From: Actinomycetota bacterium
Lineage (GTDB): Bacteria > Actinomycetota > Geothermincolia > Geothermincolales > RBG-13-55-18
Assembly (NCBI GenBank): GCA_014360655.1
Contig: JACIXC010000001.1
Coordinates: 228,715-292,714 of the forward strand
Direction: 5' to 3'
DNA length: 64,000 bases
Positions 24,324 through 43,663 of the stretch are shown here, piece by piece. The first letter of the stretch is position 1; the number at the start of each line of letters is the position of its first letter. The notes under the pieces are model-generated. The model did not search any database and had not been told where the DNA came from. It was given only the letters and a program-made list of their open reading frames with translations. The translations under genes were made by a program, and so were the position numbers.

Positions 24324-24892
24324 ACGCACTCCCTTTCCCTTCCGCAGGGACCACCGCCTCCGGGCGCCACCTGCCGGCCCGTCGCGGCCTTCACCTCCGG
24401 CATCCGTGTTCCGCCATACACGAGCTGCACGGCGTTCCTGCAACAACGGGCCGGAACAAGCCCCCATAACAGGACTCCCATGCCAATACTGCCGGTATGA
24501 TAAATCGGCGTCAACGCCGTGCGGCTTCACACGTCGGGCATCCTCACGCGTTGGAGGGACCCGCCCGCGGGGTCTTTCTCCGCCGAGAACCACCGCCGGC
24601 TCCGGGCACGCTGTGGGAGGGCAATGCCCGCCTACTCGCATGATTACCACAGGAACGGTATAAATCTATTAATATTAATACATCTCCCGCGCATCCCGCG
24701 GCGGGGAAGCGGGCTGCGCGCCGTGGGGGCGGATGACACGAAACGAAGGTGATCCGCGAAACGGGTGGGATGGTTTGATGTGACGGCAAGGTATGGCGCA
24801 TGTCGGGGTAAGGCTTGACCGAGCGGGGGCAGGACTTGATGGGATGGGGCGTGATGGGTGATGAAGGTATCGGCGCCTGAAATCGAGGCGGG

Positions 24893-26119
24893 TTGAGGAG
24901 GTTTCACTTGAAAGAGGTCGCTTTCCTGTCAAGCCTGGTCACGGGCTCGCGCTCCAAGATGGTGCTCCTGGTGTTGGACGGCCTGGGTGGCCTTCCGCAC
25001 CCGGACACCGGCCTCACGGAGTTGGAGACGGCGAGGACCCCCAACCTGGACGCCCTGGCCAGGGAATCCATATGCGGGCTCATCCACGCCATCGGTCCGG
25101 GCATCACCCCGGGAAGCGGTCCCGCCCACATGGCCCTCTTCGGGTACGACCCGGTGCGCTACGAGGTGGGGAGGGGAGTGCTCTCCGCCCTGGGGGTGGG
25201 CATGGACCTCGGTCCCGATGACCTGGCGGCGCGGGTCAACTTCTGCACCGTGCAGGACGGGGTGATCGTCGACCGCCGGGCCGGCCGCATCTCCACCGAG
25301 GAGAACGCGCGCCTCTGCGAGAAGCTCTCGGGCATAAGGCTGGAGGGCGTCGAGGTCGAGATACGCCCGGAAAAGGAGCACCGCGCCGCCCTGGTCTTCC
25401 GCGGCGAGGGGCTCTCGGAGCGCGTCTCCGACACGGACCCCCAGCGGACAGGACTCGCCCCCCTACGCTGCGAGCCCCTGCCGGGAGGCGGCGCGGCGGC
25501 GGAGCGCACGGCGGCCCTGGTGAACGAATACCTGGAAAAAGTTTCCATGATACTCGCGGACGAGCATCCCGCCAACATGATCGTCACGCGCGGCTTCGCC
25601 AAGAAGCCGGACATCCCGCCGATGACGGACCTCTACGGGCTGCGGGCGGGGGCCGTGGCCACCTACCCCATGTACCGCGCGGTGGCCCGCCTGGTGGGCA
25701 TGGAGCTCGTCGCAAGCGGCCCCTCCTTCTCCGAGCAGGTGGAAGCCATGGCCGGGGCCTGGGAGGAATACGACTACTTTTTCGTCCACTACAAGTACAC
25801 GGACAGCCGCGGCGAGGACGGCGACTTCGCGGCCAAGGTTGCCTGCATCGAGGAGGTGGACGAGGCGGTCCCCCGCATCGTGGAGCTGGATCCCGACGTC
25901 CTGGTGGTCACCGGCGACCACTCCACCCCCGCCCTGCTCAAGGGGCACAGCTGGCACCCCTCCCCCCTCCTGCTGCGCTCCCGCTGGGAGAGGCGGGACG
26001 AAGTGGGTTCCTTCGGCGAGAGCGCCTGTGCCGCGGGAGGCCTGGGAACGTTTTACGCGGTGGACCTCCTTCCCCTCATGCTCGCCAACGCGCAGCGCCT
26101 CAACAAGTTCGGAGCCTGA
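24893..26119 (+). CDS. apgM: 2,3-bisphosphoglycerate-independent phosphoglycerate mutase, archaeal-type (ApgM, COG3635)
   Basis: VLLVLDGLGG...TPNLDALA...HAIGPGITPGSGPAHMALFGYDP is the ApgM signature, with the C-terminal metal-binding part (VVTGDHSTP). The start may be an internal TTG or ATG. Confidence 0.8.
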   Translation: MRRFHLKEVAFLSSLVTGSRSKMVLLVLDGLGGLPHPDTGLTELETARTPNLDALARESICGLIHAIGPGITPGSGPAHMALFGYDPVRYEVGRGVLSALGVGMDLGPDDLAARVNFCTVQDGVIVDRRAGRISTEENARLCEKLSGIRLEGVEVEIRPEKEHRAALVFRGEGLSERVSDTDPQRTGLAPLRCEPLPGGGAAAERTAALVNEYLEKVSMILADEHPANMIVTRGFAKKPDIPPMTDLYGLRAGAVATYPMYRAVARLVGMELVASGPSFSEQVEAMAGAWEEYDYFFVHYKYTDSRGEDGDFAAKVACIEEVDEAVPRIVELDPDVLVVTGDHSTPALLKGHSWHPSPLLLRSRWERRDEVGSFGESACAAGGLGTFYAVDLLPLMLANAQRLNKFGA

Positions 26120-26298
26120 AGGGGACGGAGAATGGGGCACGACATCCCGGCACGCGGTCGAACCGGCGCCGCGACGCGGCCTCACCGGGCCCGTGCAAAC
26201 GTTTTTTCCGCACGGCGGCTCGTGGGGTGAGGAGGGGCGGGCCTTGCAGGTCACCGGGGGAAAGAAGAAGGATTTCGCCTCCGCGCGCCTGCGGGGAG

Positions 26299-27422
26299 TG
26301 CCCGGTGTCGTGTTGGTGTTTCTTACCTGGGTCATATTCCTCCTTTCCTTTTCCTTTTTCACGTATGTCCTCGCGCAGGCCTATAAGCTGGGCCCGGGCC
26401 ACATCAGCGCAGGGGAGTTCTTCCGCAGCCTCATCCGCTACGACGCCGCCTACTACCTCGATATCGCCCGCCACGGTTACGCGGCGAGCCTTCCCCTCGG
26501 CGGCCGGGAGATCTACGTATCTACGGCCTTCTGGCCCCTGTATCCCCTGCTGATAAGGACCTTCGCGACTCTTACGGCCGGGAATCACATCGCCGCCTCC
26601 CTGGCGGCCGCGTGGCTTTCCCTGCTCCTTGCGCTTGTCTACCTCTACAAGCTGGCCCGGCTCTCGTCGGACGACGAGACGTCCCTCCGCTCCTGCCTTT
26701 TCGCCCTGCTCTTCCCGACCGCGTGTTTCCTTTTCTTCCCTTACGCCGAGCCGGTCTTCCTCCTCTGCGCCGTCGCGTCCCTTTACCATGCCCGTCGCTC
26801 CTCGTGGATACTCTCCGGCATGTGGGGGTTCCTCGCCTGCCTGGCGCGCCCTGTAGGCCTGGCCGTATGCGTGGCCCTGGTGGTGGAGGCGTTGCAACAG
26901 TCGGGCTGGAAGCCCGCCCGCCTGCGGCCGCGCATGGCGGCCGTACTGGTGGCGCCCCTGGGCCTGGTCTCGTACCTGGTCTATCTCAGGTGGCGGTTCG
27001 GCGACTTCTTCTATTTCGCCACGGCGCACCGCGAGGGATGGCGAACGGGGTTCAACCCCTGGAGCCTCTTTTCCGCGGTGAAGCACCTTTTCGCGCCCGA
27101 GAGGCTCTCGGAATTCGTGCGCTATGCGTACCTCCTCTTCTTCTTCCTGCTCTTCGCCGTGCTCCTCGTGCCCGCCTTCAGGAAGCTGCGCCTCTCCCTG
27201 GCCGTCTACGGGACTCTCTGCCTGCTCATATCCGCGTTCTTCACTTCCAGCGACCTTCCCCTGCAGAGCATGAACCGCCACGTCATCGTCATCTTCCCGG
27301 CCTTCCTCATCCTGGGCTCGTGGGGAGGGAACCGCGACTTCGAGCGTTTCTATATCTTCGCCGGGACCTTGGGTCTGGCCACCTTCACCGCCGTCTACCT
27401 CCTGAATTTCTTCTCGGGGTAA
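26299..27422 (+). CDS. GT-C fold mannosyltransferase-like membrane protein (PIG-V/Gpi18, Mannosyl_trans2-like); start uncertain
   Basis: About 10 TM segments. The first extracytoplasmic loop motif YDAAYYLDIARHGY resembles the WDxxWYLxIAExGY motif of the bacterial PIG-V-like family. The overlapping 444-aa antisense ORF is charge-rich junk. Confidence 0.55.
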
Positions 27423-27874: not shown

Positions 27875-30556
27875 GTGGAAGGAACACGAGGGATAATGGA
27901 AGGGAACCTATTTCCGCGGGACCGGCACCCGGCCTTAAGTCGCGGAAAACGTGAATGCCTCTGGGTTTTCCTGCTCTTCCTGGCCGTCACTTTCGCGTTC
28001 TTCTGGCCGGCTCCCCTTCACCTGGCGACCCGGATCATCGGAGACAGGTACGACGCCTTCCTGAACTGCCATATCGTGGCCAGGGTCGCGAGTGCCCTGC
28101 CCTTCCGCCCCGGGAGCATGTACCAGCTCGGCTTCTTCTTCCCGGCGAGAGATGTCCTCACTTATTCGGAGCACCTCATCACCCTGGGCCTTCTCGCCCT
28201 TCCCGCGTACAGGACGACCGGCAACATCGTGCTCTCCTATAACCTGCTCTTCCTCTCCGGCTTTTTCTTCTCCGCCCTCACCTGCTACGCGCTGGTCAAG
28301 TACCTGACGGGCAGCCGCCTGGGAGGAGTCGCGGCCGGGCTCTTTTACGCCTTCTGCCCCTACCGCTTCGCCCAGCTCGGTCATATCCAGATCATCTTCT
28401 CGCCTTTCCTGCCGCTCATACCCCTCTACCTCTTCAAGTACATGGAGACGGGCAGGCGAAGGGACCTGGCGTTCTTCGCGCTCTCTTTCCTGGCGCAATC
28501 CCTGGTGGGATGGCACCACGCCGTCTTCTGCGTGCTAGTCTTCGCGCTTTTCTGGCTCTGGCACGCCGCCTTTTCGAAGGGAGGGGGAAAATGGCGGCGC
28601 CTTTCCGCGCTCCTGGTCTCCTTCCTGCTCATGCTGGCGGTCCTTTCCGCCGTCGCCGTTCCCTACCTGCAGACCAGGAATCGCCTTCCCGACTTCAACC
28701 GGCCCCTCGAGGAGACGGTTTCCTTCTCCCTGCAAGCGGCGGATCTCGCAAGGGTCAAGGATTACAATCTCCTGTACGGCAGGCTGCTGCCGCTGGCGGC
28801 CGATGCCTTGACGAGCGATGAGCACATCCTCTTCCCGGGGCTGGTGGTCCCCCTGCTCGCACTCTTCATACTGACGCGCCTTATCGCGCAATGCCTCAGG
28901 CGTGGCGGGGAAGATCCCGCCGCCAACGGGACCGGCACGGGGTGCGGCGGCCCCCCTTCCCCCGTTTCCCACGGGCGCGGCGGGGAAGGCGCCGCCGCAG
29001 CCACGCGCACGGCCGCGGACCGCAGGGTGCCTTTTTTCGCCGTGCTCTTAATCCTGTGCTTGGTCTACATGGCGGGACCCAAGCCCGGCGGCATTACCAA
29101 CCCCGTTTACTGGCTGAGCTTTCTCGGCAACCGCCTCAGTTTCATCAGGGTACCCACGCGTTTCTTCGTGCCCGCCTCGCTGTGCCTCGCGGTGCTCGCC
29201 GCATACGGGATCTCCCATCTCGCCGGCCATGCCGGGTGGGCTTCCGGGGGATCGCTTGCAAGGCGGGCGTTTCCTGCCCTCCTCGTCCTCCTCCTGCTCT
29301 TCGAGGTGGCCTCCTTCCGCGTCCCGCTCTTCGCCGCGCCACGTAAAGACGATCTTCCGCCCGTATACGAACGGCTGCGGGAGGAAGAGGAGGCGACCAT
29401 CATGGAGCTCCCCGCGGCAGACCTTTTCGACATTCTCTACATCAGCAACCGCCGCATATACTTCGTGCCCGTCAATCCCGTGAAGGGATACGTGGAACGC
29501 GAGTGCACTTCCCTGTTCCTCTCCATCCTGCACGGCAAGAGGACGGTCAACGGGTACAGCGGCTACTTTCCTTACCAGTACAACACGGCCTATATCGAGG
29601 CGAAGGGTTTTCCATCCGCAAGATCGGTGCGTCTCCTGGCATCCATGGGAGTGGACTACGTGGTGTGGCACTGGGAATGGGTGGAGCCCGAGAGGCGCCA
29701 GGAATACGAGGAGCGCCTCTCCTCCACCCCGGGCATCGAGTGGGCCGGGGATTTCGGGATGCAGGGGCTTTTCCGGCTGCTGCCCCAGGAAACGGCGGAA
29801 ATCGCCGACGTCGAGTTGCAGCTGGTCGCCCCCTCAGTGGCCCCGGAAAGGGAGGAACTCAACCTCGGGCTCATCGCCAGCAACACCTCCGCCCTGCCTT
29901 TCATGGCCAACGTCGAGGAGTGGCAGGACTTCGACGCGGTATTCTCGGATGGAAGTAACTGCTATTCCCTGCGCGGCAGGTACCGCCTTCCGCTTTACAT
30001 GGACGGCGGCGAAAGCGTCTCCATACCCCTCACGCTGGAAAGCACGCCCCCCTCCGGGGATTACAGCCTGGGGATCACGCTTACCGGGGGCGCATTCTCC
30101 GGCCGCGCCCTCTCCTCCTCGATCTCCCTCCGCCCCGCGAGCGACTTGACGGGTTCGGGAATCATAGCCGGGAATATCACTCTTTCCGGCGAAGCGTCCT
30201 TGACCATCCCTTCACCGGGAGGCCTCTACCCCCTCGTCCTCCAAGCGGAAAACACCGGAGGCATTTTCTGGAAAGCGGCCTGGGAAGACGAGAAGGCGCA
30301 GGAATATCCCTACGGACTCGTTTTCCTGGGGACGAACTGGTCCGGGGAGGATAACTGGAGATATAGCGGCCATATGCCCTTCCTGCCCTGTGATCTCTCC
30401 CCGGGCCAATCCGCCAGCGTGCCCATGGTATTGAGGGTACCGGACGCAGCCGGCGTCTACCGGCTGAACCTCGCCCTCTTCGACTTCAGGTACGGCATGG
30501 TAAGCGAACCACTAAGCCTGGAATTGAGAGTGGGGGAAGGCGCATATGCGAAGTGA
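27875..30556 (+). CDS. Large polytopic membrane protein (893 aa), GT-C/YfhO-like candidate, paralog A
   Basis: More than 10 N-terminal TM helices with a loop-1 motif FFFPARDVLTYSEHL. A large extracytoplasmic C-terminal region ends in Ig-like β-sandwich modules (LPCDLSPGQSASVPMVLRVPDAAGVYRLNL). It is clearly paralogous to the next gene. There is a Pro/Gly/Ala-rich insertion around aa 340-390. Confidence 0.55.
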   Translation: MEGTRGIMEGNLFPRDRHPALSRGKRECLWVFLLFLAVTFAFFWPAPLHLATRIIGDRYDAFLNCHIVARVASALPFRPGSMYQLGFFFPARDVLTYSEHLITLGLLALPAYRTTGNIVLSYNLLFLSGFFFSALTCYALVKYLTGSRLGGVAAGLFYAFCPYRFAQLGHIQIIFSPFLPLIPLYLFKYMETGRRRDLAFFALSFLAQSLVGWHHAVFCVLVFALFWLWHAAFSKGGGKWRRLSALLVSFLLMLAVLSAVAVPYLQTRNRLPDFNRPLEETVSFSLQAADLARVKDYNLLYGRLLPLAADALTSDEHILFPGLVVPLLALFILTRLIAQCLRRGGEDPAANGTGTGCGGPPSPVSHGRGGEGAAAATRTAADRRVPFFAVLLILCLVYMAGPKPGGITNPVYWLSFLGNRLSFIRVPTRFFVPASLCLAVLAAYGISHLAGHAGWASGGSLARRAFPALLVLLLLFEVASFRVPLFAAPRKDDLPPVYERLREEEEATIMELPAADLFDILYISNRRIYFVPVNPVKGYVERECTSLFLSILHGKRTVNGYSGYFPYQYNTAYIEAKGFPSARSVRLLASMGVDYVVWHWEWVEPERRQEYEERLSSTPGIEWAGDFGMQGLFRLLPQETAEIADVELQLVAPSVAPEREELNLGLIASNTSALPFMANVEEWQDFDAVFSDGSNCYSLRGRYRLPLYMDGGESVSIPLTLESTPPSGDYSLGITLTGGAFSGRALSSSISLRPASDLTGSGIIAGNITLSGEASLTIPSPGGLYPLVLQAENTGGIFWKAAWEDEKAQEYPYGLVFLGTNWSGEDNWRYSGHMPFLPCDLSPGQSASVPMVLRVPDAAGVYRLNLALFDFRYGMVSEPLSLELRVGEGAYAK

Positions 30557-30706
30557 CGGCCGCGTTGCTCGCCCTTCCCCTTTTCCGGGGATCGAAAGGA
30601 TGTCGCCCGCGTGCCGATAAGATATTGTTTCGCGCGACGGCGTGGAAAAAGTTAAGGGTTTGAGACGGGAGCTTGTTCTCAAAATGCGAGCGAGCGGGGT
30701 CTGCAT

Positions 30707-33355
30707 ATGAAGTGCACCAAGAAATGCGAATACTTCAGTGTTTTAGTCTTTTTCCTGCTCATCGCGATCATCTTCACCTGGCCTCTTGCCCTCCACGTGC
30801 AGAACTCCTTACCCGGAGATAACGGTATATACGAGGCGACCGGCGAGCTGGGAGGCTACGGTGACGCGCTGCACGCGGCGTGGCTCACCGCCTGGAACGC
30901 CAGGGCCATCTTCACCAGTCCCACCAACTTCTTCCAGGGAAATATCATTTACCCGTCACGCGACGTTAACACCTACTCGGAGCACCTGTTCATCCTCGGC
31001 GTCGCAGGCGCACCCGTTTATTTCGTGAGCCGCAATCCGGTGCTCACCTATAACTTCCTGTTCTTTCTCGCCCTGGTACTCTCCGCTTTCGGAGTCCACC
31101 TCCTGGTCAAGGAGTTGACGGGAAGCCGCTGGGGCGGTCTGGCTGCGGGGCTCTTTTTCTCCTATTGCCCTTTCAGGATGGCCAGGACGGATCATCTCTG
31201 GTTCCTCTTTTCCCTTTTCCTGCCCTTCATGCTCCTCTACCTGTTCCGTTACCTGGAAAAGGGCGAGCGCAAAGACATCGCCCTCTTCGCCCTCTTCTTC
31301 CTCCTGCAGTCCCTCTCAAGCTGGCATTACACCATGTTCTGCGCCATCTCGGCCGGGCTGCTGCTGATCTGGACGGCGGCACTTTCCCGCCGGCGCGAGA
31401 CATGGAAACGACTGACGAAAGCCGCGGCGGCCATGGCCATTATGGGGGTTCTCCTCGTGCCCCTGCTCCTGCCCTACCTGCGGACCCATTCCCGCATGCC
31501 CGGATTTGAGCGTTCCGTTTCGGAGAATATAACATACTCGGTGCACGCCACCGATTTTCTCAGGATACCGCCTCAAAGCGTTCTCTACGGCGGCGCTCCC
31601 GGCCCCTTGCGCTACACGATGGCCTTTCGCGGCGCGGCCCTTTTCCCGGGAATACTGGCGATCGTCTTCATGCTGTCCGGCTTATTCACGCTCCGCAGAA
31701 GGCGGTCCGCAAGCGCGGGCCCGGAAGAAAGCCGCGGGGATTGTCCCGAGCCCATCCTCGAAGCGCCCAAGCCCGGGGCAAATTCGATCAGAGAGAAGCT
31801 CTTGTCCTTGCGATACCGACTCTTTTTCCTTCTCCTCTTCCTGGTAAGCTTCCTGCTGTCCTGGGGACCACGGCTGGGAAAATTGAGCAACCCCTTTTAT
31901 GACCTACCTTACAGGCTCGGCATTCTGCGCTTTACGCGTACTCCCATGCGTATTTATCTCCTGGCCATATTGGGCATCTCCGGGTTGATCGGTTTTGGCA
32001 TCGCCGCCATCGCTGCCGGCTTCTCAAGACGGTTTAAAGACATAAGAAGGGGGAGGATGGCAACGGGGGCCCTGGTGCTGGTCTTCGCTCTCGAGATCGC
32101 CACCTTCAACCTGCCCATATATCGCGTACCCGTATGGGGAGAAGTCCCCGACGTTTACGCGTGGGCGGCGGAGCAGGAGAATATCCGGATGATCGAGCTT
32201 CCCGTCCCACCCTTATCGCCTCGGACTGCTGTCTATAGCGGGTGGGACATGGACTATATAACCGAGGATCCCGTTAAATACACGGAAACCGACGGTCTCG
32301 CCATGTATTACAGCACCTATCACTGGAAATATATAGTAAATGGCCGGAGTTCGTACTTTCCTTATTTTTACCGCCACATATACAATGAAATGGCCTCTTT
32401 CCCATCACAAAGGACCCTGGATCTTCTCTCCGGTCTGGGGGTCGATTACGTCATCTGGCATCGCGACTGGGTAGATGACCGGGAAAGGGGCGCCTATGAC
32501 AATATGTTGCTTTCCTCTCCCGGGCTTTCCGTCGAACGTGATTATGGAAACACCGCCGTCTTGCGCATCAAGCAGGTATGCACCGCCGCCGCCGGGGATA
32601 TCGGGCTCAGCCTGGTGACCCCGGTAACGGCACCTCAGCGGGAACCGTGCAATATGGGATTCATCATGCGCAACGATACCCCACACCCCTTCGTCATGGC
32701 CGTGGAGGAAGCCCAACGGGCCAGGGTCTTGTTCGCCGGAGACGGCGGCATGTTCGAGTTGCATGGCTCTTTTCGCGTGCCGCTGTTCCTGGAACCGGGG
32801 GAAGAGGCCTCCGTCCCCCTGTCCCTCCCTGAATCCCCCCCAGCGGGCACATATGATGTGAGGATAGACCTCGAAGCGGGGGTCTTCGCCCCGCGCACCC
32901 TTGAAGCGGAAATGTCCTTCCGTACCCAGGAGGAGATGGTGGGCGGCGGGGAACTGGATGGGGCGATATCTTTCGCGAAGGGAAACGAGCCCATCCTGTT
33001 ACCGGTACCGAACGCCCTCCAAACCGTCGTGCTCCGCGTCGAGAACACCGGTTCCAACCACTGGCTGGCCTCGTGGGACTACGAACATCCCGAGGAGTAC
33101 CCTTACGCTTTGGTGTACATATGGGCATTCTGGTTCAAGGATGGTCAGCAGACATCGGGTCATGCCATCGGGTTCATTCCGTGTGACCTCTCGCCGGGCC
33201 AGGCGGTTTCATTCCCCGTTACCGTAAGGACCCCGGATACTCCGGGCACGTATAACTTGACCACGGCGCTCTTCGACGCTCAATTAGGCCAGTTCAGCAG
33301 TTCCACCAGCATACGGGTATCGGTGGGCGAGCAATCGGTGGGCGACCAGACATGA
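30707..33355 (+). CDS. Large polytopic membrane protein (882 aa), GT-C/YfhO-like candidate, paralog B
   Basis: Shares co-linear motifs with paralog A (IIYPSRDVNTYSEHL, LTGSRWGGLAAGLFFSYCPFRMA, WHRDWVDDRERGAYDNMLLSSPG, IPCDLSPGQAVSFPVTV). Confidence 0.55.
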   Translation: MKCTKKCEYFSVLVFFLLIAIIFTWPLALHVQNSLPGDNGIYEATGELGGYGDALHAAWLTAWNARAIFTSPTNFFQGNIIYPSRDVNTYSEHLFILGVAGAPVYFVSRNPVLTYNFLFFLALVLSAFGVHLLVKELTGSRWGGLAAGLFFSYCPFRMARTDHLWFLFSLFLPFMLLYLFRYLEKGERKDIALFALFFLLQSLSSWHYTMFCAISAGLLLIWTAALSRRRETWKRLTKAAAAMAIMGVLLVPLLLPYLRTHSRMPGFERSVSENITYSVHATDFLRIPPQSVLYGGAPGPLRYTMAFRGAALFPGILAIVFMLSGLFTLRRRRSASAGPEESRGDCPEPILEAPKPGANSIREKLLSLRYRLFFLLLFLVSFLLSWGPRLGKLSNPFYDLPYRLGILRFTRTPMRIYLLAILGISGLIGFGIAAIAAGFSRRFKDIRRGRMATGALVLVFALEIATFNLPIYRVPVWGEVPDVYAWAAEQENIRMIELPVPPLSPRTAVYSGWDMDYITEDPVKYTETDGLAMYYSTYHWKYIVNGRSSYFPYFYRHIYNEMASFPSQRTLDLLSGLGVDYVIWHRDWVDDRERGAYDNMLLSSPGLSVERDYGNTAVLRIKQVCTAAAGDIGLSLVTPVTAPQREPCNMGFIMRNDTPHPFVMAVEEAQRARVLFAGDGGMFELHGSFRVPLFLEPGEEASVPLSLPESPPAGTYDVRIDLEAGVFAPRTLEAEMSFRTQEEMVGGGELDGAISFAKGNEPILLPVPNALQTVVLRVENTGSNHWLASWDYEHPEEYPYALVYIWAFWFKDGQQTSGHAIGFIPCDLSPGQAVSFPVTVRTPDTPGTYNLTTALFDAQLGQFSSSTSIRVSVGEQSVGDQT

Positions 33356-33373
33356 GGGGACATGCACGCATCC

Positions 33374-34057
33374 TCATTCCACCATCCAGAGGAGGTTATC
33401 CACCTCGCTCTCCTCTCCCGCCCAGCGCATGAGATAGGCGGCGAGCTGGGTGGCCAGGACCTTCAAATCATCGGTGTTCAGGTAATGGGAGCAGCAGCGG
33501 TCGAAGAGCACGCGGCACTGCGGCGGGAACTCATCGTCTCCCCAGTGGAGCACGAGGAGCAGGGGCACGCGGGGGAAGGCCCTGAACACGAAGGACTCGT
33601 CGCCGTATTCCGCCCTTGCCCCTCCCAGGTGGACGGCCGCCTCTCCCAGCAATCCCCTTGCGTAGCCGAAAATCCTGGCCAGGGGCTCCTCAACGGTGGG
33701 AACGAGGGTGGCGGCGTAGAACCTGCCTCCCGGCAGGTCCCGGTAGGCTATCCACTCCCCCGTCTCCGGCAAGCCGCAGGAAAGCTTCACGTAGCGGAGG
33801 GCCAGCACGCGCAGCGAGAAGCTGTCGATACGGGATGGCACCTTCATCTCGCCCCGGGGCATCGATATCTCCACGGCATCCCCGAAGGAGGGTATGACGA
33901 GGCGTTGTACGCCTTCTCCAAGATCTTCGCAGCGGAAGGCGCCGAGTTCGGCCTGGCGGCACAGGTCGGCGTTCCTGATCTCCTCCAGGGCGCCCTCTAA
34001 TGCCGCCTCCCGGCGCCTTGCGCCGTCATCTACGCCATAAACGTCACCTTCGCTCAT
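33374..34057 (-). CDS. DUF3786-like protein
   Basis: About 228 aa from MSEGDVYG. Conserved-looking blocks LVLHWGDDEFPPQCRVLFDRCCSHYL. The stop is only 18 bp from the convergent stop of paralog B. Confidence 0.45.
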   Translation of the reverse strand: MSEGDVYGVDDGARRREAALEGALEEIRNADLCRQAELGAFRCEDLGEGVQRLVIPSFGDAVEISMPRGEMKVPSRIDSFSLRVLALRYVKLSCGLPETGEWIAYRDLPGGRFYAATLVPTVEEPLARIFGYARGLLGEAAVHLGGARAEYGDESFVFRAFPRVPLLLVLHWGDDEFPPQCRVLFDRCCSHYLNTDDLKVLATQLAAYLMRWAGEESEVDNLLWMVE

Positions 34058-34974
34058 GGCCTTTATATTAGCGCAACGGCGCAAGCGTGGCGCGGCCCGA
34101 AAACGCCCGGCCCGCCGGGGAGGGCCCGCCGCGCGTCTTTCAGGCGCAGCGGGTTTGCCCGGATTGGAGCATGGTCCGCCTCGTTTCCTCCCGTCTGATG
34201 GCGGGGGATCGACGAGGTTGCGATATCGTGCCCGGAGTGAAGTATGGTCCGCCGTATGATCCGCCCTTCGCGAGCGTAAACGCGGGGGCGCAAATGCGTT
34301 GCCCCCTCACATCATGCCTTTTTCGCAGGCGCCTGTCTCCGGTGAAGAAAAAAATGGATAACCCTAAGGAGTTACCCTCATATCATGCCTCTTTCGCAGG
34401 TGCCGGTCTCCGCTACGCGTCCGCGTCCCCGCCTTCCTCCCCTACCTCGTCCCCGGCCTCGCGGGGCTCATAGGGGTCTTCGTTCCTCGCCCTGCGGCCG
34501 ATGGCCCGCTTGGAATATCTTCCCCTGCCCTTCCAGAAATCCGGCTCCAGCATCTGCAAACCCTTCACCTCCCGTTATCTTCCGTCATCAAGTCTATAAA
34601 TTATCAACTATCGTATACAATAATATACTATAATTTACGAAATCAACAACTACATCTTCACTTTCTTCGCATCCAGGGGAATGGCATGCCCATTTCGCCG
34701 TTCGTCCCACCTATGCCGTTTGCCGTCGCAATCTTCAGGCCACGCCACCGTAAACGTCACCTCCTACCAACCATCACCGCGGTCACCCCGCTCGATCCAT
34801 CGCCCGCGATACCCCCACCCTTTGCTTGAGATAAGCACTCAGCGTGAGGAACATGACGCCATTTCCCGCACGGCCGCCAAAACCCAACTCCCACATCTCC
34901 ACTTAAAGATAGCGCGAGCCGATGACGAATCTGTAGTTAGCCCGGGAACGGCATCGGAAGAGGGAGGTCCGCAC

Positions 34975-35517
34975 GTGGGTATCTTCCGGCGCGAGATACG
35001 ATTCGAGGTAGATGAAGCCCCTGATGGGAGAATATTCATAGAGGGAACCCTGCGGGATACCCGCCTGGGGGACCCCATCCACGTCATCAAGGTAAGGTCG
35101 GAGGTGGACGCGCTGGAGGGCCGTATCCTCGCGCTCGAGGGGGAGATGCTCCATGTTCCCCACGAGGACTGCCGGCATGCCCTCCAGACCATCGACCGCC
35201 TGGTGGGTGTGCGTATCGTCCCGGGGTTCACCCAGCTGGTGCGGGAAGTGGTGGGATCGCCGGAGGGGTGCTCCCACCTCGCCGTGCTGGTCACCAACCT
35301 GGGCCACGTGAGCGTGCAGGGGAGAGGCGCCCTGGTGGTGCACAAGTTCGGCGGGGACGAGCGGGCAGTGCGCCTCATGCGCGAACAGGCGCTGCAACTG
35401 GGCATCGTGGACAACTGCTATACCTGGCGTAAGGACGGCCCCCTGGTCAAACGTTTGCGGGAGGCGGCGGGAAGAGACGGAGGCGCCGCGGGGGATAGCG
35501 GCGGCGAGCCGGTATGA
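34975..35517 (+). CDS. DUF2889-like protein
   Basis: GTG start preceded by a GAGGGAGG SD. Contains CRHALQTID and GCSHLAVLVTNLGHV, Cys/His motifs characteristic of DUF2889. The longer upstream ORF reading from 34681 is low-complexity. Confidence 0.45.
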   Translation: MGIFRREIRFEVDEAPDGRIFIEGTLRDTRLGDPIHVIKVRSEVDALEGRILALEGEMLHVPHEDCRHALQTIDRLVGVRIVPGFTQLVREVVGSPEGCSHLAVLVTNLGHVSVQGRGALVVHKFGGDERAVRLMREQALQLGIVDNCYTWRKDGPLVKRLREAAGRDGGAAGDSGGEPV

Positions 35518-35544
35518 TGAGAAGGAGCGGGTAGGGAGCCGCGC

Positions 35545-36321
35545 ATGCTCGGCAAGATATATTACGGCTTCGTGGTGTTTCTCTTCGGGCTGGCGGTGGG
35601 CAGTTTCGACAACGTGGCCGTCTACCGCGTACCGGAAGGGATACCGCTGTGGTCGCCGCGCTCCTTCTGTCCCCACTGCAGGAACACCATAGCCTGGTAC
35701 GACAACATCCCGCTGCTCAGCTATTTCCTGCTGCGGCGGCGCTGCCGAGGTTGCGGAGAACCCATATCCGCCCGCTACCCCCTGGTGGAATTCGTGAGCG
35801 GGTCGCTCTTTCTCGCCGTCTTCGCACGGCTCGGGTTCGCCTGGCGGGCGGAACTCGTCCCCTACCTGTTCATGGTCACCGTGCTCGTCATCGTCTCCGC
35901 CATCGACCTTGACCGGCAGGTGATCCCCAACAGGATCCTTTACCCCGCCATCCCCGTCGGGCTGGCGGCCATGGGGCTGGTGGCCCTCGCACGCGGGGAT
36001 GCCGGCATGATCCTGCGCAGCCTGGCCGGGCTGGCCATCGGCGGGGTGCCCCTGGGGCTCCTGGCCCTGCTCATCCCGCGCGGGATGGGGATGGGCGACG
36101 CCAAGCTGGCCGCCTTCACCGGCATCTTCCTGGGTTATTACCAGCTGGTCGCCTTCTTCTTCGCCTTCCTGCTGGGTTCGCTCGTCGGCATCGGCCTCAT
36201 GGCCGCGGGCAGGAAGGGGCGCCGCTCCCGCATACCCTTCGGGCCCTTCCTGGCCTGCGGAGCGCTGGCGGCGTTGTTCTGGGGAGAATACCTCTGGAGC
36301 CTGTATACGAGGTTCTTGTGA
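35545..36321 (+). CDS. Prepilin peptidase (A24 family, PilD-like)
   Basis: 258 aa. The N-terminal Cys tetrad (CPHCRNTI...CRGCGEPI), catalytic Asp contexts (AIDLDRQVIP; GMGMGDAKLAAFTG) and 6-8 TM helices are present. Confidence 0.85.
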   Translation: MLGKIYYGFVVFLFGLAVGSFDNVAVYRVPEGIPLWSPRSFCPHCRNTIAWYDNIPLLSYFLLRRRCRGCGEPISARYPLVEFVSGSLFLAVFARLGFAWRAELVPYLFMVTVLVIVSAIDLDRQVIPNRILYPAIPVGLAAMGLVALARGDAGMILRSLAGLAIGGVPLGLLALLIPRGMGMGDAKLAAFTGIFLGYYQLVAFFFAFLLGSLVGIGLMAAGRKGRRSRIPFGPFLACGALAALFWGEYLWSLYTRFL

Positions 36322-36441: not shown

Positions 36442-38640
36442 GTGTCTCGGCTCGAGAGGTGGGATCAGGTGAACGCTCCCGAAGCGGACCATCGTGAAGA
36501 TTTGATCTCGGCAAGGACCCGGATAACGAATCTGTTCCGCGGGGCCGGCTCCTTGCTCGTCCCTCCCCGGGCGAGACAAAAGCTCCGCCTCTGGCTGGAA
36601 AAATACAACAACTCCACGGCCCCCTACCGGCTCACCCGTGCGGACAGGCTGGCCGGGCTGGCCATCTCGCTGTTCTTCTTCCTTCTCTACCTCTATACCT
36701 GCAGCCACCACCCCAACATGGCCGGCGATTCCGCCGAGATGGTCGGCGTCTCCTATTCCCTGGGCATCGCGCATCCTCCCGGTTATCCGCTCTATACCTT
36801 GCTCGGATTCCTTTTCACCCGCCTTCCCTTCGGAAGCATAGCTTTCCGGGTCAATCTCTCCTCCGTCGTCTACCACTCCCTGACCCTCTACTTCTTCTAC
36901 GCCTGCTCCCTCAAGATCACGAGGAACCGCGCCGCCTCATCCATAGCGACGGTAGCCGTGGGCTTCACGCCGCTGTTCTGGTTCTACTCCCTGATCGCGG
37001 AGGTTTTCCCCCTGAACGACCTGCTGGTCATGCTCTTGATCTTCACGGCCATACGAACCCGCGAAAGATGGCAGGAAGGAAATCCCGCGGGTGCCATGAG
37101 GTTCGTTATTCTGCTTGCCTTCCTCTGCGGTATCAGCCTCTGTAATCATCACACGGTGGTCCTCGCCTTCCCCATGATCCTGCTCTTCATCCTGCGACCG
37201 CTGGTGGAGGTCCTGAAAAGACCGCGCTACGTGCTGCTCTGCCTGCTCGCCCTGCTCGCGGGGTTGTCGCCTTACATCTATCTCCCTTTGAGCGCATCCC
37301 GCGGTCCCTACATGAACTTCGGCGATCCCTCCAGCCTGCGCGGTTTCCTCGACGTGATAACGCGGAGGCACTACGGCACCTCGAGGCTCTGGCTGGGCCC
37401 CGAGGCCGTGAACAGGCTGGACCTCGTCCTCGACTTCGTCAAGACCCTGGGAAACCAGGTACACGTAATGGGGTTTCTGCTGGGCGCCATCGGCATGATC
37501 CATGCAGCCCGGAAAAGGCTGGGTGACTTCCTGCCCCTGCTCTTCGGCCTCATATTATCGGGCGTCGTCTTCCCCTACATGGCGAACGTGAAAATAAGCA
37601 GTATATTCCAGATCTCCACCGTGGAGAGATTCTACCTGCTCCCCACCATCATCTTCGCGTTCTTCATCGCCGAGGGGTCAGCGGGGCTCCTGGGACTGTG
37701 CGGGCAGGCCCTGCGGGGAGCGGAAATACGCGCTGATCTCAAGGCGATGTTGCTCCTGGTCCTGGTCCTGCTCCTCGCCCTCCCCTTCCTCATCCCCGCA
37801 AGAGCGACCGCCACTGACGTCAACCTCAGGGAGGATGCCCTCGGGGAGGCTTACGTCCATGACCTGATGGCCTCCGTGGAGGAAGGCTCGGTCATCTTCG
37901 TTATCGGTGATATAGCCATCCAGCTGGCGGAATACAAGCAGGTCAGCGGGGAAGCCGAGAAGAAAGCGGTATACATAGTCCAGCCGTTCCTGTTCTCTCC
38001 CTGGTACGCGGAGACCGTGGAGAAATGGTACCCCGATCTCAAGTATCCCAGGCTCGAGGAGCTGCTGTCGCAGGGTTACACGCGCTTCGGTACTTTCAGG
38101 GCCGGCATCATAGACTACATCGTGAGGAACAACCCGCAAATCCCCTCTTTTCACCTCCTTGCCAAGGTGCCCGAGCTCGAGGGCGAATACGACCTGGTGC
38201 CGTGGGGGGTCACTTATAGAATAGTACCCAAGGGCGCTGGCGAGGATGCCGCCCGATACCTGCAGCAGCAGATCGCTATCTGGAAGAATTTTCAATACCA
38301 GGGATTGGGAGTGGAATTCTATCCACCAAATCGCCGGGAATTCTATCTCTCAACGCATATCGCGTCCTTTCCGATGGCCACGGGAGAGTACCTGGAGAAA
38401 GGAGGCCTCACCGCGGAGGCGAAGAGCTTCCTGCTCCTCGCCTACGCGATGGTCCCCTCGAACGACGTGCTGCCGGTCCTTGCCGCGCTGGAGCGGGAAG
38501 CGGGGAACATGGAAGGATATTACGTCCTGTCACGCGAGGTGGTGAACGCGGAAGAGAGAAACAAGCGGGCCTATGCCCGGAAATTGCTGGCTCTCGAAGA
38601 CGCCCTGGAGGCTTTGAGCAATGCCGCGGAGAATCACTGA
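36442..38640 (+). CDS. DUF2723 (TMEM260-like) GT-C glycosyltransferase-family membrane protein with C-terminal helical/TPR-like domain
   Basis: 732 aa. N-terminal motif MAGDSAEMVGVSYSLGIAHPPGYPLYTLLGFLF is the DUF2723 signature (D/E acidic pair plus HPPGYPL). It has about 11 TM helices and a soluble C-terminal half. Confidence 0.7.
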   Translation: MSRLERWDQVNAPEADHREDLISARTRITNLFRGAGSLLVPPRARQKLRLWLEKYNNSTAPYRLTRADRLAGLAISLFFFLLYLYTCSHHPNMAGDSAEMVGVSYSLGIAHPPGYPLYTLLGFLFTRLPFGSIAFRVNLSSVVYHSLTLYFFYACSLKITRNRAASSIATVAVGFTPLFWFYSLIAEVFPLNDLLVMLLIFTAIRTRERWQEGNPAGAMRFVILLAFLCGISLCNHHTVVLAFPMILLFILRPLVEVLKRPRYVLLCLLALLAGLSPYIYLPLSASRGPYMNFGDPSSLRGFLDVITRRHYGTSRLWLGPEAVNRLDLVLDFVKTLGNQVHVMGFLLGAIGMIHAARKRLGDFLPLLFGLILSGVVFPYMANVKISSIFQISTVERFYLLPTIIFAFFIAEGSAGLLGLCGQALRGAEIRADLKAMLLLVLVLLLALPFLIPARATATDVNLREDALGEAYVHDLMASVEEGSVIFVIGDIAIQLAEYKQVSGEAEKKAVYIVQPFLFSPWYAETVEKWYPDLKYPRLEELLSQGYTRFGTFRAGIIDYIVRNNPQIPSFHLLAKVPELEGEYDLVPWGVTYRIVPKGAGEDAARYLQQQIAIWKNFQYQGLGVEFYPPNRREFYLSTHIASFPMATGEYLEKGGLTAEAKSFLLLAYAMVPSNDVLPVLAALEREAGNMEGYYVLSREVVNAEERNKRAYARKLLALEDALEALSNAAENH

Positions 38641-41016: not shown

Positions 41017-41352
41017 CTACTGCGGCAACCCGTGTTCGCTGCAGCTCGCGAACGGCGGTTGCGACGTGGAGAAAGAATAGCTGATCGTCCCGGTATCGGG
41101 GCAATGAGTGATCGAGGCCAGGTTCTCGATAAATGGAGCAAGGTCACCAAGTGCCGTGGGATAGGTCCCGTTATGGCTGGCCGCATAGACGTTGGACTGC
41201 GTCTTGATGGTCTTCATGTTGGCCTTGCAGGTCTTCTCCTGCGCGTTGCCCCTGGCCGCCAGGAATACCGGCACCGCAATACCTACCAAGATGCCGATGA
41301 TTAAGATAACGATCATCAACTCGATGAGGGTGAAACCTCCTTCCCTGTGCAT
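41017..41352 (-). CDS. Type IV pilin/pseudopilin-like protein (prepilin-type N-terminal cleavage/methylation domain)
   Basis: MHREGG|FTLIELMIVILIIGILVGIA is a class III signal peptide with the G-F-T-L-I-E motif. A perfect SD (AAAGGAGGTG) lies 6 nt upstream. About 111 aa, with 4 Cys in the C-terminal region. Confidence 0.8.
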   Translation of the reverse strand: MHREGGFTLIELMIVILIIGILVGIAVPVFLAARGNAQEKTCKANMKTIKTQSNVYAASHNGTYPTALGDLAPFIENLASITHCPDTGTISYSFSTSQPPFASCSEHGLPQ

Positions 41353-41496
41353 TCTCTCACCTCCTTTCCGCATGGTCTGACATCAAGCCGGTTGAAATGA
41401 TTTCTCTGGCGCCACCCACCTCCTTCCTCGCATCTCGCCATTTGCTTCTAATAGATTCTCGGCAAATGGCGACCGCAACTTTATATTTTATCCTTT

Positions 41497-42255
41497 TCAA
41501 CTCGCGTTTGCGCATCGATCGGGCCTCCTCCGCGCCACGGCGACCAGCGAGAGACCCCACGGCAAAGGCATACGTCCCAGCAGAAAACGTTCGGCGGCGA
41601 ACGCCTCTTCCATGATCCCATTCAATATCCTGGGCAGGGGCCTGATGTCCGGACCGGGCTCCCCGCCGCTCACCCTGCTCCACAGGCGCTGCGCCACGGC
41701 CACCGGAAAGAAGAGGGCGTTGTAATATGAGGTGAACACCTCGGCCAGCCCGGCGCCGGCTACCAGCTGCTTCACTTCCCCTTTCCGGTATCTCCTCAGG
41801 TGATGGTGGTAGGCGTCCCGGGGGGCGTAAAGCCAGGGGTGCGCCGGCACGGTGATGATCATCACCCCACCTCCATCAAGGACACCGGCCGCCGCCCTCA
41901 CCGTCTCCCGGTCGTCCCCGACGTGCTCGAGCAGGTCGAGAAGGAGCACGCAGTCGAACTTCCCCTCCAGCGAACGCAGCACTTCCGGCACCTCCCCCTT
42001 CACCAGCGCCGCCTTCGTGCGGGTGGCGGCGAAGGCAAGCGCCTCCTCGGACGCATCCACGCCCACCGCCCCCCCGCGCCCTTCCAGCGCCTGCAGCATG
42101 GAGCCGGTGCCGCAACCTACGTCCAAGAAGCGCGGGGTATGCGCGGGTTTCACGTATCTATCCACGAGCGAGAGGACGATGCGCCGCCTGGCGGCAAACC
42201 ACCAGTAGTCGTTCTCGCGCTCATACATCTCCCTGTACAGGGCTTTCTCCATCAC
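41497..42255 (-). CDS. Class I SAM-dependent methyltransferase
   Basis: Motif I LDVGCGTGSM and motif II/post-I DCVLLLDLLEHV. The alternative start at Met-10 (42228) would abut the upstream GtrB stop rather than overlap it. Confidence 0.8.
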   Translation of the reverse strand: MMEKALYREMYERENDYWWFAARRRIVLSLVDRYVKPAHTPRFLDVGCGTGSMLQALEGRGGAVGVDASEEALAFAATRTKAALVKGEVPEVLRSLEGKFDCVLLLDLLEHVGDDRETVRAAAGVLDGGGVMIITVPAHPWLYAPRDAYHHHLRRYRKGEVKQLVAGAGLAEVFTSYYNALFFPVAVAQRLWSRVSGGEPGPDIRPLPRILNGIMEEAFAAERFLLGRMPLPWGLSLVAVARRRPDRCANAS

Positions 42256-43226
42256 CCTCGCCTTCGAAACCCAGCATGGTGGAGACCAGGTATAGCGGCC
42301 TTTCCTGCACCTCCCGGTACATCCTTCCCAGGTATTCGCCCAGCACGCCGATGAAGAAGATCTCCGTGCCGTTGAGCAGGAACAGGCTGATGACCAGGAA
42401 AGCGTAGCCGGGCACCTCCAGCCCGAAGAACACCTTCTGCACGAACACCACCAGTATGGCCGCCAGGCTGACCAGAAACATGAAAAACCCCAGGAAGCTC
42501 ATGAAGCGGAGAGGCGCGGCGGAAAAAGAGGTGATGCCGTCCAGGGCAAGGCGCAGGCGCCTGAGGGTCGAGTACTTGGTCTTCCCTTCCAGGCGCGGCT
42601 CCCGCTTGTAGGGGACCTCGACGGCGTTACCGCCCAGCCAGGCTATCTCGGCGCGCACGAAGCGGTTCCTCTCCCGCAGGAGACGGAAGCGCCTCACCAC
42701 CTCCCTGTCCATGAGGCGGAAGTCGCCCGTATCAACGGGGATATCCACCTCCGTGAGGCGCTTCATGAGACGGTAGAAGATGCGTGACGAAAGCCTCTTG
42801 CCGAGAGGCTCGCCTTTCCTCTCCACGCGACGGCCGTAGACGACATCGTAGCCCTCCTCCCAGCGTGAGAGCATCTCGCCGATCACCTCGGGAGGATCCT
42901 GCAGGTCGGCGTCGATGATGACCACGGCGTCGCCGTCCGCGAAGTCCAGTCCGGCGGTGGTGGCCATCTCGTGGCCGAAGTTGCGCGTGAAGCCGATGAG
43001 GCGCACACGCTTGTCCTCCCGGTGCAGTTCCTCGACGACACGGCGCGTGCCGTCCACGCTGCCGTCGTCCACGAAGATGATCTCGTACTCCCTGACCAGG
43101 GGCTGCAGCACCGCCGTCAGCCTCTCATGGAGTGGCCTGATGTTCTTCTCCTCGTTATACACCGGCACCACGATGGAAAGGCGCGCCTCGGCGGCTTTTC
43201 TCGTCGCTGTCTTGTCAAAAGCCATC
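42221..43226 (-). CDS. Polyprenyl-phosphate glycosyltransferase, GT2 family (GtrB/CsbB/Ppm1-like)
   Basis: 335 aa from MAFDKTA. Shows LSIVVPVYNEE, DDGSVDGT, IDADLQDPPE (the DxD-type catalytic region of GtrB/DPM1) and two C-terminal TM helices. The upstream part of the 462-aa ORF is non-coding-looking. Confidence 0.85.
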
Positions 43227-43663
43227 GGTCCTCCCGCGATCACCCGCCGTGCGACCCGGCGCGAGCCCGGCTTGATACCCGCATACCGATATATTTCGCC
43301 TCCGCGCGCCCCAATTATGGTAACCGCAACCATTGACCACGGGCAACGCGCCGCCTTGCGCCTCTCCGGCGGCCAGTCCGCATGTCGACCGCATGCCGCC
43401 GCACAGGGGTCCATGCCGGCCTCGCCCTCACGAAACTGCAGCCCGGCAACGTTCCAGATAAGATATCGGCCTGCCGGCGCCTGCGAGTTTATAATGGGAT
43501 GTGCGTTTTCCCGCTCGTGAGATGTTCCTACAGGCGGGAAACGTTTACGACCACGGGGTCGCGCACGTGCCGGGCGATGGTCGCACGGGCAGGGCGTTCC
43601 GCCCGGCATCGACGGGGCAGGCTCGAGAAAGCCGCCGGAGCGGAAGGAACCGGGGGTGCGCGG

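Follow-up and report, generated by a model that had tools for sequence, protein, structure and literature searches.

We examined a 64,000-nucleotide (nt) stretch of contig JACIXC010000001.1 (forward strand, positions 228,715 to 292,714; assembly GCA_014360655.1) from an Actinomycetota bacterium of the Geothermincolia, hereafter the window, in which two tandem genes encode large membrane proteins that we call paralogs A and B. We consider it probable that A and B are diverged paralogs of a GT-C-fold membrane glycosyltransferase from a very large uncharacterised subfamily related to YfhO, PF10131/DUF6311 and PMT_2. An earlier reading of the letters (the original prediction) had proposed a glycosyltransferase or polymerase with an outside domain and an immunoglobulin (Ig)-like tail; the fold, profile and topology evidence set out below supports a glycosyltransferase of the GT-C superfamily, and for a polymerase we found a sub-threshold Wzy_C_2 match only. 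The two genes are:

27875..30556, + strand: paralog A, 893 amino acids (aa) from GTG; probable GT-C-fold membrane glycosyltransferase, A-type lineage; NCBI H5T73_01035
30707..33355, + strand: paralog B, 882 aa; probable GT-C-fold membrane glycosyltransferase; NCBI H5T73_01040

Both open reading frames (ORFs) lie on the + strand at exactly the positions first reported, with the qualification that A probably starts at the ATG at 27896, which would give 886 aa; we place the start there because NCBI H5T73_01035 is 886 aa long and because the ortholog P0122 (77%) begins at that Met (Met8 of A). An AGGG lies 5 nt upstream of this ATG. A is a 100% match to P0121, and B is identical to H5T73_01040 of an 'Actinobacteria bacterium' metagenome-assembled genome (MAG). 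A pairwise BLASTP alignment of A and B gave 36% identity and 54% positives (E 6e-177; 28 gap positions in 881 columns), within the 35-40% that had been estimated by eye, and with so few gaps over 881 columns the two proteins are co-linear over their whole length. All four motifs quoted in the original prediction were recovered in A and in B: the first-loop RDV/YSEHL motif (FFFPARDVLTYSEHL in A, IIYPSRDVNTYSEHL in B), the LTGSR stretch (LTGSRLGGVAAGLFYAFCPYRFA in A, LTGSRWGGLAAGLFFSYCPFRMA in B), the Trp block (WHWEWVE in A, WHRDWVD in B), and the motif of the C-terminal module (LPCDLSPGQ in A, IPCDLSPGQ in B). No third copy was found in the window. The promoter/terminator scan found nothing promoter-like, and neither the A-B spacer nor the sequence after B holds a terminator-like site; the overall count of terminator-like sites was at background level.

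Fold, topology and family placement

The AlphaFold2 model of B, built with 98 homologs as input, reached a predicted local distance difference test score (pLDDT) of 92.3 and a predicted template modelling score (pTM) of 0.92. When its membrane part was compared with the PDB by Foldseek, the top matches were all GT-C enzymes (E 8.7e-8 to 8.8e-5, prob 1.00), namely STT3 (8b6l_I, E 8.7e-8; also 7oci_F and 6c26_A), DPY19 (7zli_A, 2.1e-7), PglB (3rce, 1.5e-5), ArnT (5ezm, 5.2e-5) and AftA (8if8, 7.4e-5). At the profile level, the family profile (98 sequences) aligned by hhalign with the YfhO-family protein encoded in the window, the closest in-window relative of A and B (probability 98.9%, E 1.4e-17, ~340 columns), and this match takes in the Arg...Arg pair of the fifth extracytoplasmic loop (EL5) that precedes transmembrane helix 10 (TM10); the same profile against the TMEM260-like protein of the window was not significant (E 0.082, probability 0.7%). 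The parts of A and B to which we refer are:

30707..32098, + strand: B aa 1-464, predicted 11-TM GT-C core, N-in/C-out (AlphaFold helices, charge bias; hhalign to YfhO over positions 106-467)
30776..31036, + strand: B aa 24-110, EL1, first extracytoplasmic loop, proposed catalytic; D53 (codon 30863-30865), P83-x-R85-D86 (RDV), Y90-S91-E92-H93
27944..28225, + strand: A aa 24-117, EL1 equivalent; D60 (codon 28052-28054), RDV aa 92-94, YSEH aa 97-100
31862..31951, + strand: B aa 386-415, EL5 outer loop; invariant G387-P388 and R411...R415 (98/98), proposed donor-phosphate binding
32099..32581, + strand: B aa 465-625, alpha/beta extracytoplasmic domain; ELP, Y534-x-S-x-x-H539-W, NG(Y/R)SGYxP, FPSxR, WHxxWV
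32594..33331, + strand: B aa ~630-875, two Ig/FnIII-like beta-sandwich domains, accessory tail; the second has PCDLSPGQ
29309..30556, + strand: A aa 479-893, outer alpha/beta domain and two Ig-like domains, by co-linear alignment to B

Helices were read from the model of B and then tested by the positive-inside rule on the 98-sequence alignment. The density of Lys plus Arg was 0.146, 0.316, 0.458, 0.455, 0.176 and 0.270 in the six proposed inner segments vs. 0.037, 0.061, 0.000, 0.091, 0.113 and 0.076 in the outer segments, a clean pattern that, on the modelled helices, gives the family 11 predicted TM helices with the N-terminus inside and the C-terminus outside. The RDV/YSEH loop falls outside by this rule across the 98 homologs, as had been expected of it; the expectation that the shared motifs would avoid cytoplasmic loops does not hold for the LTGSR motif, which forms a tight cytoplasmic turn before TM3.

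Conservation was counted on the same alignment (B numbering). S91, G148, Q201, Y257, G387, R411, R415, P499 and G546 are invariant (98/98), D53 is present in 96/98, and E92 is present in 96/98 with Asp in the other 2. On outer loops, outer helix ends or the outer alpha/beta domain lie D53, S91, E92, Q201, Y257, R269, R411, R415, E463, E497, H539, S548 and R569; nearly all conserved polar residues thus face outside, which is what an outward-facing GT-C active site predicts. The conserved acidic residues D53 and E92 stand in a long EL1 that follows TM1, a trait of the GT-C superfamily. The Asp of the RDV motif itself (D86) was considered as the key catalytic residue and rejected, being kept in just 70/98 members (19 have Arg there) vs. 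96/98 for each of D53 and E92.

Beyond the membrane part, the alpha/beta outer domain belongs to the family core and is also found in members of 560-660 aa. The C-terminal Ig-like module recognised from the start is borne out by the models, which show two beta-sandwich domains matching tandem Ig/FnIII structures; those of B match RbmA, transglutaminase beta-barrels and WxLIP by Foldseek, and the tail has weak Pfam matches to N_BRCA1_IG and NPCBM_assoc. A separate model of B aa 465-882, compared with the PDB by Foldseek, gave only these tandem Ig/FnIII matches and none for the alpha/beta domain. The Ig tail may serve to bind the acceptor or the substrate.

Matches to curated families were marginal. 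B only just passes PF10131 (PTPS_related) at 26.7 bits vs. a cutoff of 26.4 (profile positions 12-175 of 621), and A has no match to it; the Pfam matches of A are all sub-threshold (GT-C_AftD at 14.9 bits; Wzy_C_2 at 16.4 bits against a cutoff of 28.5, over 70 residues; and DUF4131). Neither protein matches YfhO PF09586 at E<1 (gathering threshold 28.5 bits), PMT_2/GT39 PF13231 (gathering threshold 26.1 bits), the TMEM260-like/DUF2723 family PF11028 in Pfam, or the ArnT models of Pfam and NCBIfam, the similarity to ArnT being at fold level only. A Pfam match to STT3 and its WWDxG motif are likewise absent from both, WHWEWVE and WHRDWVD being the nearest Trp-rich blocks, and among Wzy_C-type profiles B matches none and A just Wzy_C_2. 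A Pfam scan of ten representatives of the family alignment gave several matches: relatives score 18-45 bits on PF10131 (best the core-only P0079, 44.7), with matches that cover the first ~160-230 of 621 profile positions, three exceed the PMT_2 cutoff (P0027 27.8, P0073 33.4 and P0071 34.2 bits), and P0088 comes near the YfhO threshold at 25.7 bits; none of the Pfam matches of homologs extends beyond about residues 80-340. For many homologs DUF6311 (PF19830) matches are on record as precomputed, which the local Pfam scan did not reproduce at E<0.01, and a few relatives go by the name 'glycosyltransferase family 39' at NCBI. PF10131, with function unknown, belongs to the GT-C clan CL0111 (PMC7801869). 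Our literature search returned no functional study for DUF6311, PTPS_related (PF10131) or Geothermincolia glycosyltransferases, and DUF6311 is named in no paper of the library searched. The A/B family is a divergent branch of the GT-C clan, closest to YfhO and overlapping the edges of PF10131/DUF6311 and PMT_2. The 'unrecognised family' of the original prediction therefore stands in so far as this branch is divergent and uncharacterised, and gives way in that a placement in the clan, between YfhO, PF10131/DUF6311 and PMT_2, is possible.

We also considered that A and B might not be sugar transferases at all, and might instead be Wzy/WaaL-like polymerases or ligases, transporters, or anchors that display Ig-like domains. 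This would accommodate the sub-threshold Wzy_C_2 (16.4 vs. 28.5 bits) and DUF4131 matches of A and the resemblance of the tandem Ig domains to matrix/adhesion proteins such as RbmA. However, the Wzy_C_2 match is short and far under threshold, the membrane domain fits GT-C by fold and YfhO by profile, no transporter family was matched in Pfam or NCBIfam (the original prediction had named such a match as one result that would speak against it), and what the family conserves is the membrane part with the alpha/beta domain, the Ig tail being dispensable in most members. We regard this explanation as extremely improbable.

Divergence of the two copies and extent of the family

Of the two copies A has diverged further; its branch is long, and several residues that are near-invariant in the family are substituted in it (W59H, W63R, N79G, P252A and W540G in B numbering). 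The EL1 of A is without 12 residues that form one segment in the B clade, and both conserved Trp of this loop are gone (H66 and R70 in A). All family-invariant residues are kept, with D60, S98, E99, Q208, Y264, R425, R429, E477 and H553 as the polar ones. The old duplication that had been proposed is supported by an A-type lineage with signatures of its own (FWPxPxHL, KYLTGSR and FLGNRLxFIRVPTRF), common to A, P0122 (77%) and P0123 (41%). The tandem is also kept in a close relative (L032). Measured against its tandem orthologs, the ratio of nonsynonymous to synonymous substitution rates (dN/dS, Nei-Gojobori) came to 0.26 (A) and 0.20 (B) and stayed under 0.55 whichever segment was taken, from which we conclude that both genes are functional and under purifying selection. 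A as a pseudogene or pseudoenzyme was rejected, given the retained invariant residues and its dN/dS of 0.26.

These data bear on a further possibility, that A and B form an obligate hetero-oligomer in which A is a fast-evolving, possibly non-catalytic, acceptor-binding partner. There is precedent, in that EmbA and EmbB are tandem-encoded GT-C paralogs that form a heterodimer, and PMT1/PMT2 is heterodimeric as well; the genes here are tandem and co-oriented, the pair is retained in L032, and the residues lost by A, together with its long branch, would suit such a partner. Yet related genomes with a single copy (L001/L002, L011) and one with three (L003) exist, so that the family can do without a fixed A-B pair. 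A also retains every invariant polar residue, and purifying selection acts on all of its length, as would be expected of an active enzyme. An obligate pair, with A possibly non-catalytic, is in our judgement decidedly unlikely.

The two copies also differ in the cytoplasmic loop IL4:

28901..29026, + strand: IL4 linker of A, aa ~343-384, Pro/Gly/Ala-rich, low-complexity, cytoplasmic, between TM8 and TM9 (from the alignment)
31688..31792, + strand: IL4 linker of B, aa ~328-362, Arg/Ser/Glu/Pro-rich, predicted disordered (pLDDT 45-57 over residues 331-360)

The Pro/Gly/Ala-rich stretch that the original prediction described as an insertion in A is real, but it is not lacking in B, since a linker of equal length but other composition occupies the loop in B and its orthologs; the two linkers align with just 3- and 4-residue gaps (the family mean loop length is 17 aa), which rules out an A-specific insertion relative to B. 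In the model of B no long segment other than this loop has low confidence; by topology the loop is cytoplasmic. About 30 residues of the A linker (CGGPPSPVSHGRGGEGAAAATRTAA...) are missing from the 77% ortholog P0122, as if this disordered cytoplasmic loop had expanded recently, and the B clade is extended at the same loop.

A search with the family profile (hmmsearch, 1.84 billion cluster representatives) returned 44,279 proteins with E<=1e-3, of which 9,504 had E<=1e-30. Many members are 560-660 aa long and cover just profile positions ~10-595, so the conserved unit is the membrane part with the first outer domain; the Ig-like tail is an accessory, present mainly in Geothermincolia-type proteins and dispensable in most family members, and some distant members have F5/8 type C domains in its place. 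Full-length relatives of B come from Candidatus Solincola species, Geothermincolales and Actinomycetota MAGs, and core-only members from Chloroflexia, Acidobacteriota and Aminicenantes. Two distant core-only members have as neighbours another GT-C, a DegT aminotransferase and a small GT2, joined in one of the two clusters by a methyltransferase, and by analogy these neighbours would follow an Arn-like logic; two further contexts of distant members were uninformative. In a Chloroflexi MAG (L034, 3212-7776) a core-only member overlaps the end of a 930-aa PF10131/DUF6541 GT-C gene, and beside the pair lie a GT2, a methyltransferase and a DegT aminotransferase. This is a further case of GT-C genes in tandem, here with a donor pathway of Arn-like type.

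The A/B family is expanded in this lineage. A second type of locus, present in many Geothermincolia-type genomes (L006, L008, L009, L010, L012, L016 and L024), holds two additional copies that are more divergent and lie on opposite strands, with 28-33% identity to A or B, so that single genomes can hold at least four paralogs; the MAG SURF_21 has both a second-type locus (L010) and a core locus (L014).

The surrounding locus and a proposed pathway

A and B lie among other genes of possible relevance to glycosylation, and five GT-C genes (A, B, PIG-V-like, TMEM260-like and YfhO) fall within 15 kb:

26301..27422, + strand: PIG-V/PMT_2-like GT-C membrane protein, upstream neighbour (PF04188 31.5 bits, cutoff 22.4; PMT_2 21 bits); start uncertain, ORF from 25839
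35545..36321, + strand: prepilin peptidase (A24; PF06750, PF01478); syntenic
36442..38640, + strand: TMEM260-like (DUF2723) GT-C (PF11028, E 4.6e-32); syntenic in L001, L003, L011 and L014
38621..40942, + strand: YfhO-family GT-C (PF09586, E 1.2e-19); syntenic
41017..41373, - strand: ComGC/GspG-like type IV (pseudo)pilin (N_methyl and pilin_ComGC matches), Ser/Thr-rich C-terminus; speculative acceptor
42221..43228, - strand: GT2 of the PgfS/ArnC/CsbB-like polyprenyl-phosphate sugar synthase type (NCBIfam PgfS 267 bits, ArnC 182 bits, below equivalog cutoffs)

The window shares with L001/L002 (Candidatus Solincola tengchongensis), L011 and L014 the gene order family copies, DUF3786 (- strand), DUF2889, prepilin peptidase, TMEM260-like GT-C, YfhO GT-C and ComGC-like pilin (- strand); L003 has the same genes, but with its family copies after DUF2889 and directly before the TMEM260-like gene. 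The core locus holds a single family copy in L001/L002 and L011, a pair in L014 as in the window, and three copies in L003. Beyond the pilin gene, both the window and L001/L002 have a methyltransferase and the GT2. The GT2 is 335 aa long from its likely start at 43228 and has two C-terminal TM helices, and its PgfS score of 267 bits compares with an equivalog cutoff of 500 bits. Of the components of a multi-component glycosylation set, the window has GT-Cs (A, B and three others) and a PgfS/ArnC-like GT2; neither GtrA nor Wzx was seen, and an EamA/DMT transporter (44976-45896) is the sole flippase candidate.

In multi-component transmembrane glycosylation, a GT-A enzyme makes a C55-phosphate-linked sugar (C55-P-sugar), a flippase moves it, and a GT-C enzyme such as YfhO transfers it to an acceptor (PMC8035078; PMC11898649). 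We envisage that A and B would act in the last step of such a scheme. A membrane-associated GT-A/GT2 would load a sugar on undecaprenyl phosphate at the inner face, and the lipid-linked sugar would be flipped across the membrane. It would then bind to A or B in a groove at the outer leaflet, with the Arg pair R411/R415 holding the phosphate, and A or B would transfer the sugar to an extracytoplasmic acceptor, with D53 and/or E92 as catalytic base or metal ligand and with the alpha/beta domain and Ig tail positioning the acceptor. The roles given to D53, E92 and R411/R415, the type of donor, the acceptor and a functional link to the GT2 are all suggested by position and context: a lipid-phosphate-linked donor used on the non-cytoplasmic face would fit the outer-face R411/R415 and the presence of a PgfS/ArnC-like GT2, and that nearby GT2 plausibly makes the donor in the window and in Ca. 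Solincola tengchongensis. Within this conserved multi-GT-C locus for cell-envelope glycosylation, A and B most likely differ in acceptor or linkage specificity.

As to the acceptor, that of YfhO-family enzymes is teichoic acid in Bacillus, Staphylococcus and Listeria, and a Ser/Thr-rich protein segment in streptococci (PMC12041528), and since both kinds are used, polymer and protein acceptors are both possible for A and B. We find an envelope glycopolymer somewhat more likely than a protein, because of the multi-GT-C setting, the carbohydrate-binding tails of relatives and the sugar-pathway neighbours of distant members.

The protein alternative in its full form is that A and B are protein O-glycosyltransferases like PgfM1 and PgtC2, which decorate Ser/Thr-rich secreted segments, possibly the ComGC-like pilin, with the Ig tail recognising the acceptor. 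Streptococcal YfhO-family GT-Cs glycosylate Ser/Thr-rich disordered regions of surface proteins (PMC12041528), and PgfS, the best NCBIfam match of the GT2, comes from that same protein-glycosylation pathway; the GT2 lies far under the PgfS equivalog cutoff, however, and matches ArnC too. Synteny of the family with prepilin peptidase and pilin holds in at least five Geothermincolia-type loci, and the C-terminus of the pilin is Ser/Thr-rich (TGTISYSFSTSQPPFAS), yet synteny by itself cannot identify an acceptor, the window has no pilus assembly ATPase or platform genes, and many paralogs occupy the second type of locus without pilin genes. The neighbouring TMEM260 family is reported to consist of protein O-mannosyltransferases in animals (PMC10214176), whereas distant members of the A/B family lie in clusters of sugar-nucleotide/polysaccharide type and some have F5/8-type-C carbohydrate-binding tails. 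On balance we hold a protein-glycosylating role to be rather unlikely.

A bolder version of the proposed pathway is that the conserved Geothermincolia locus is a pathway dedicated to building or decorating a new envelope glycoconjugate of this uncultured class, its target perhaps a glycosylated type IV pilin, with A and B as specialised, possibly hetero-oligomeric partners that add different sugars or linkages. We think this quite unlikely, but if true, GT-C enzymes would gain a new class of acceptor, defined by an orphan family that numbers more than 9,500 clusters at 50% identity.

Several results weigh against the assignment of A and B as GT-C glycosyltransferases of this kind. The Foldseek template modelling scores (TM-scores) are moderate, at 0.34-0.48 target-normalised (ArnT 5ezm 0.36), and PDB sequences, when searched with a profile of the 98-sequence alignment, yielded no GT-C and weak Ig-like matches only (best E 0.027). 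B's marginal PF10131 match spans just 164/621 positions, A and B have otherwise no curated-family match above threshold, and NCBIfam has no family for either even at E<1. EL1 contains no DxD motif, and D53/E92 would be equivalent to the catalytic Asp/Glu of PglB, ArnT or PMT by position only. As for the pathway, the window revealed neither a GtrA-type nor a Wzx flippase, and the GT2 is ~9 kb away on the other strand and missing from the syntenic L003, so that its link to A and B is weak. The enzyme class is already familiar; the A/B subfamily itself is without a characterised member, a solved structure or an NCBIfam name.

Some observations on the locus stand apart from these questions. The TMEM260-like and YfhO genes overlap by 20 nt, which suggests translational coupling, and they are adjacent and in the same order in L001, L002, L003, L011 and L014, the most stable part of the locus. 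DUF3786 (- strand), DUF2889 and the prepilin peptidase (window 33374-36321) are adjacent in 5/5 related core loci, with the peptidase before DUF2889 in L003. The GT2 ORF (42221-43609) runs ~127 codons upstream of the likely start (MAFDK..., ATG at 43228); this Arg/Pro-rich extension overlaps the start of an opposite-strand DUF1786-like ORF (43382-44737) and is probably untranslated. Upstream of the family, L001, L003 and L032 have a gene of an HdrA/Fer4/CCG-type redox cluster, and in the same position the window (23085-27422) has a carbohydrate-binding module (CBM)-like protein, an iPGM-type phosphoglycerate mutase and the PIG-V-like GT-C; since these genes differ from those of the relatives, the upstream boundary of the locus is rearranged in the window. 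The first of them (23085-24650, - strand) encodes a membrane-anchored 521-aa protein with a His/Glu-rich acidic repeat (HAHSHAHVEEEHEHEEHEHAEEEHAEEEHVHHEEGH) followed by a weak CBM_4_9 match (19.6 bits, below cutoff), which could be a metal- or carbohydrate-binding surface protein adjoining the GT-C cluster. Further away (54324-56126, + strand), a 600-aa protein with an SdrD B-like domain (E 2.4e-22), probably of the surface/adhesin type, is a possible glycosylation target.

Comparison with known systems

In every domain of life, GT-C enzymes take part in building and decorating cell envelopes and glycoproteins, and several of them, Emb and ArnT included, are drug targets. Because this orphan family is so large, and because five GT-C genes share a locus in an actinobacterial class that is uncultured, the subfamily is worth characterising, and the confident model, the topology and the candidate catalytic residues D53, E92, R411, R415 and H539 make it directly testable. 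The clustering of five GT-C genes also points to an elaborate extracytoplasmic glycan in Geothermincolia, which are known only from metagenomes.

The nearest known system is the YfhO family (PF09586), in which YfhO of B. subtilis and S. aureus is a lipoteichoic acid (LTA) GlcNAc transferase and the streptococcal PgfM1 and PgtC2 act in protein O-glycosylation. Like A and B, these are GT-Cs with a large C-terminal extracytoplasmic region; as with YfhO, a CsbB/PgfS-type GT2 is encoded near A and B, and they share profile homology with the window YfhO that includes the R...R before TM10. They differ in that the hhalign match leaves out EL1 of A/B, in having no PF09586 match, in the ELP, YxSxxHW, NGYSGYxP and FPSxR motifs and the two Ig-like domains that are specific to the A/B family, and in occurring in Geothermincolia-type Actinomycetota, Chloroflexota and Acidobacteriota rather than Firmicutes. 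With respect to PF10131 and PF19830 (DUF6311), B marginally passes PF10131 and A has no match, so the A/B family is a sister branch and not cleanly a member. STT3/PglB and DPY19 are the best structural matches of B (620-840 columns) and share the GT-C membrane architecture with its long EL1, but identity is 9-13%, TM-scores are 0.40-0.48, A and B are without WWDxG, and no genes for lipid-pyrophosphate (lipid-PP)-oligosaccharide assembly lie nearby.

The mycobacterial EmbA, EmbB and EmbC are tandem diverged GT-C paralogs with a polytopic core, extracytoplasmic beta-sandwich/carbohydrate-binding domains and a polyprenyl-phosphate sugar donor, and they act beside several other GT-Cs on one envelope glycan. 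A and B have no Pfam-detectable similarity to them, differ in TM count and outer domains, and are accompanied by no arabinan-pathway genes; they are, like the Emb enzymes, tandem actinobacterial GT-C paralogs, and the related arabinosyltransferase AftA is among the Foldseek matches of B. Set beside these systems, the finding extends a known enzyme class, with an assignment to that class that would not surprise a specialist and that leaves current understanding standing.

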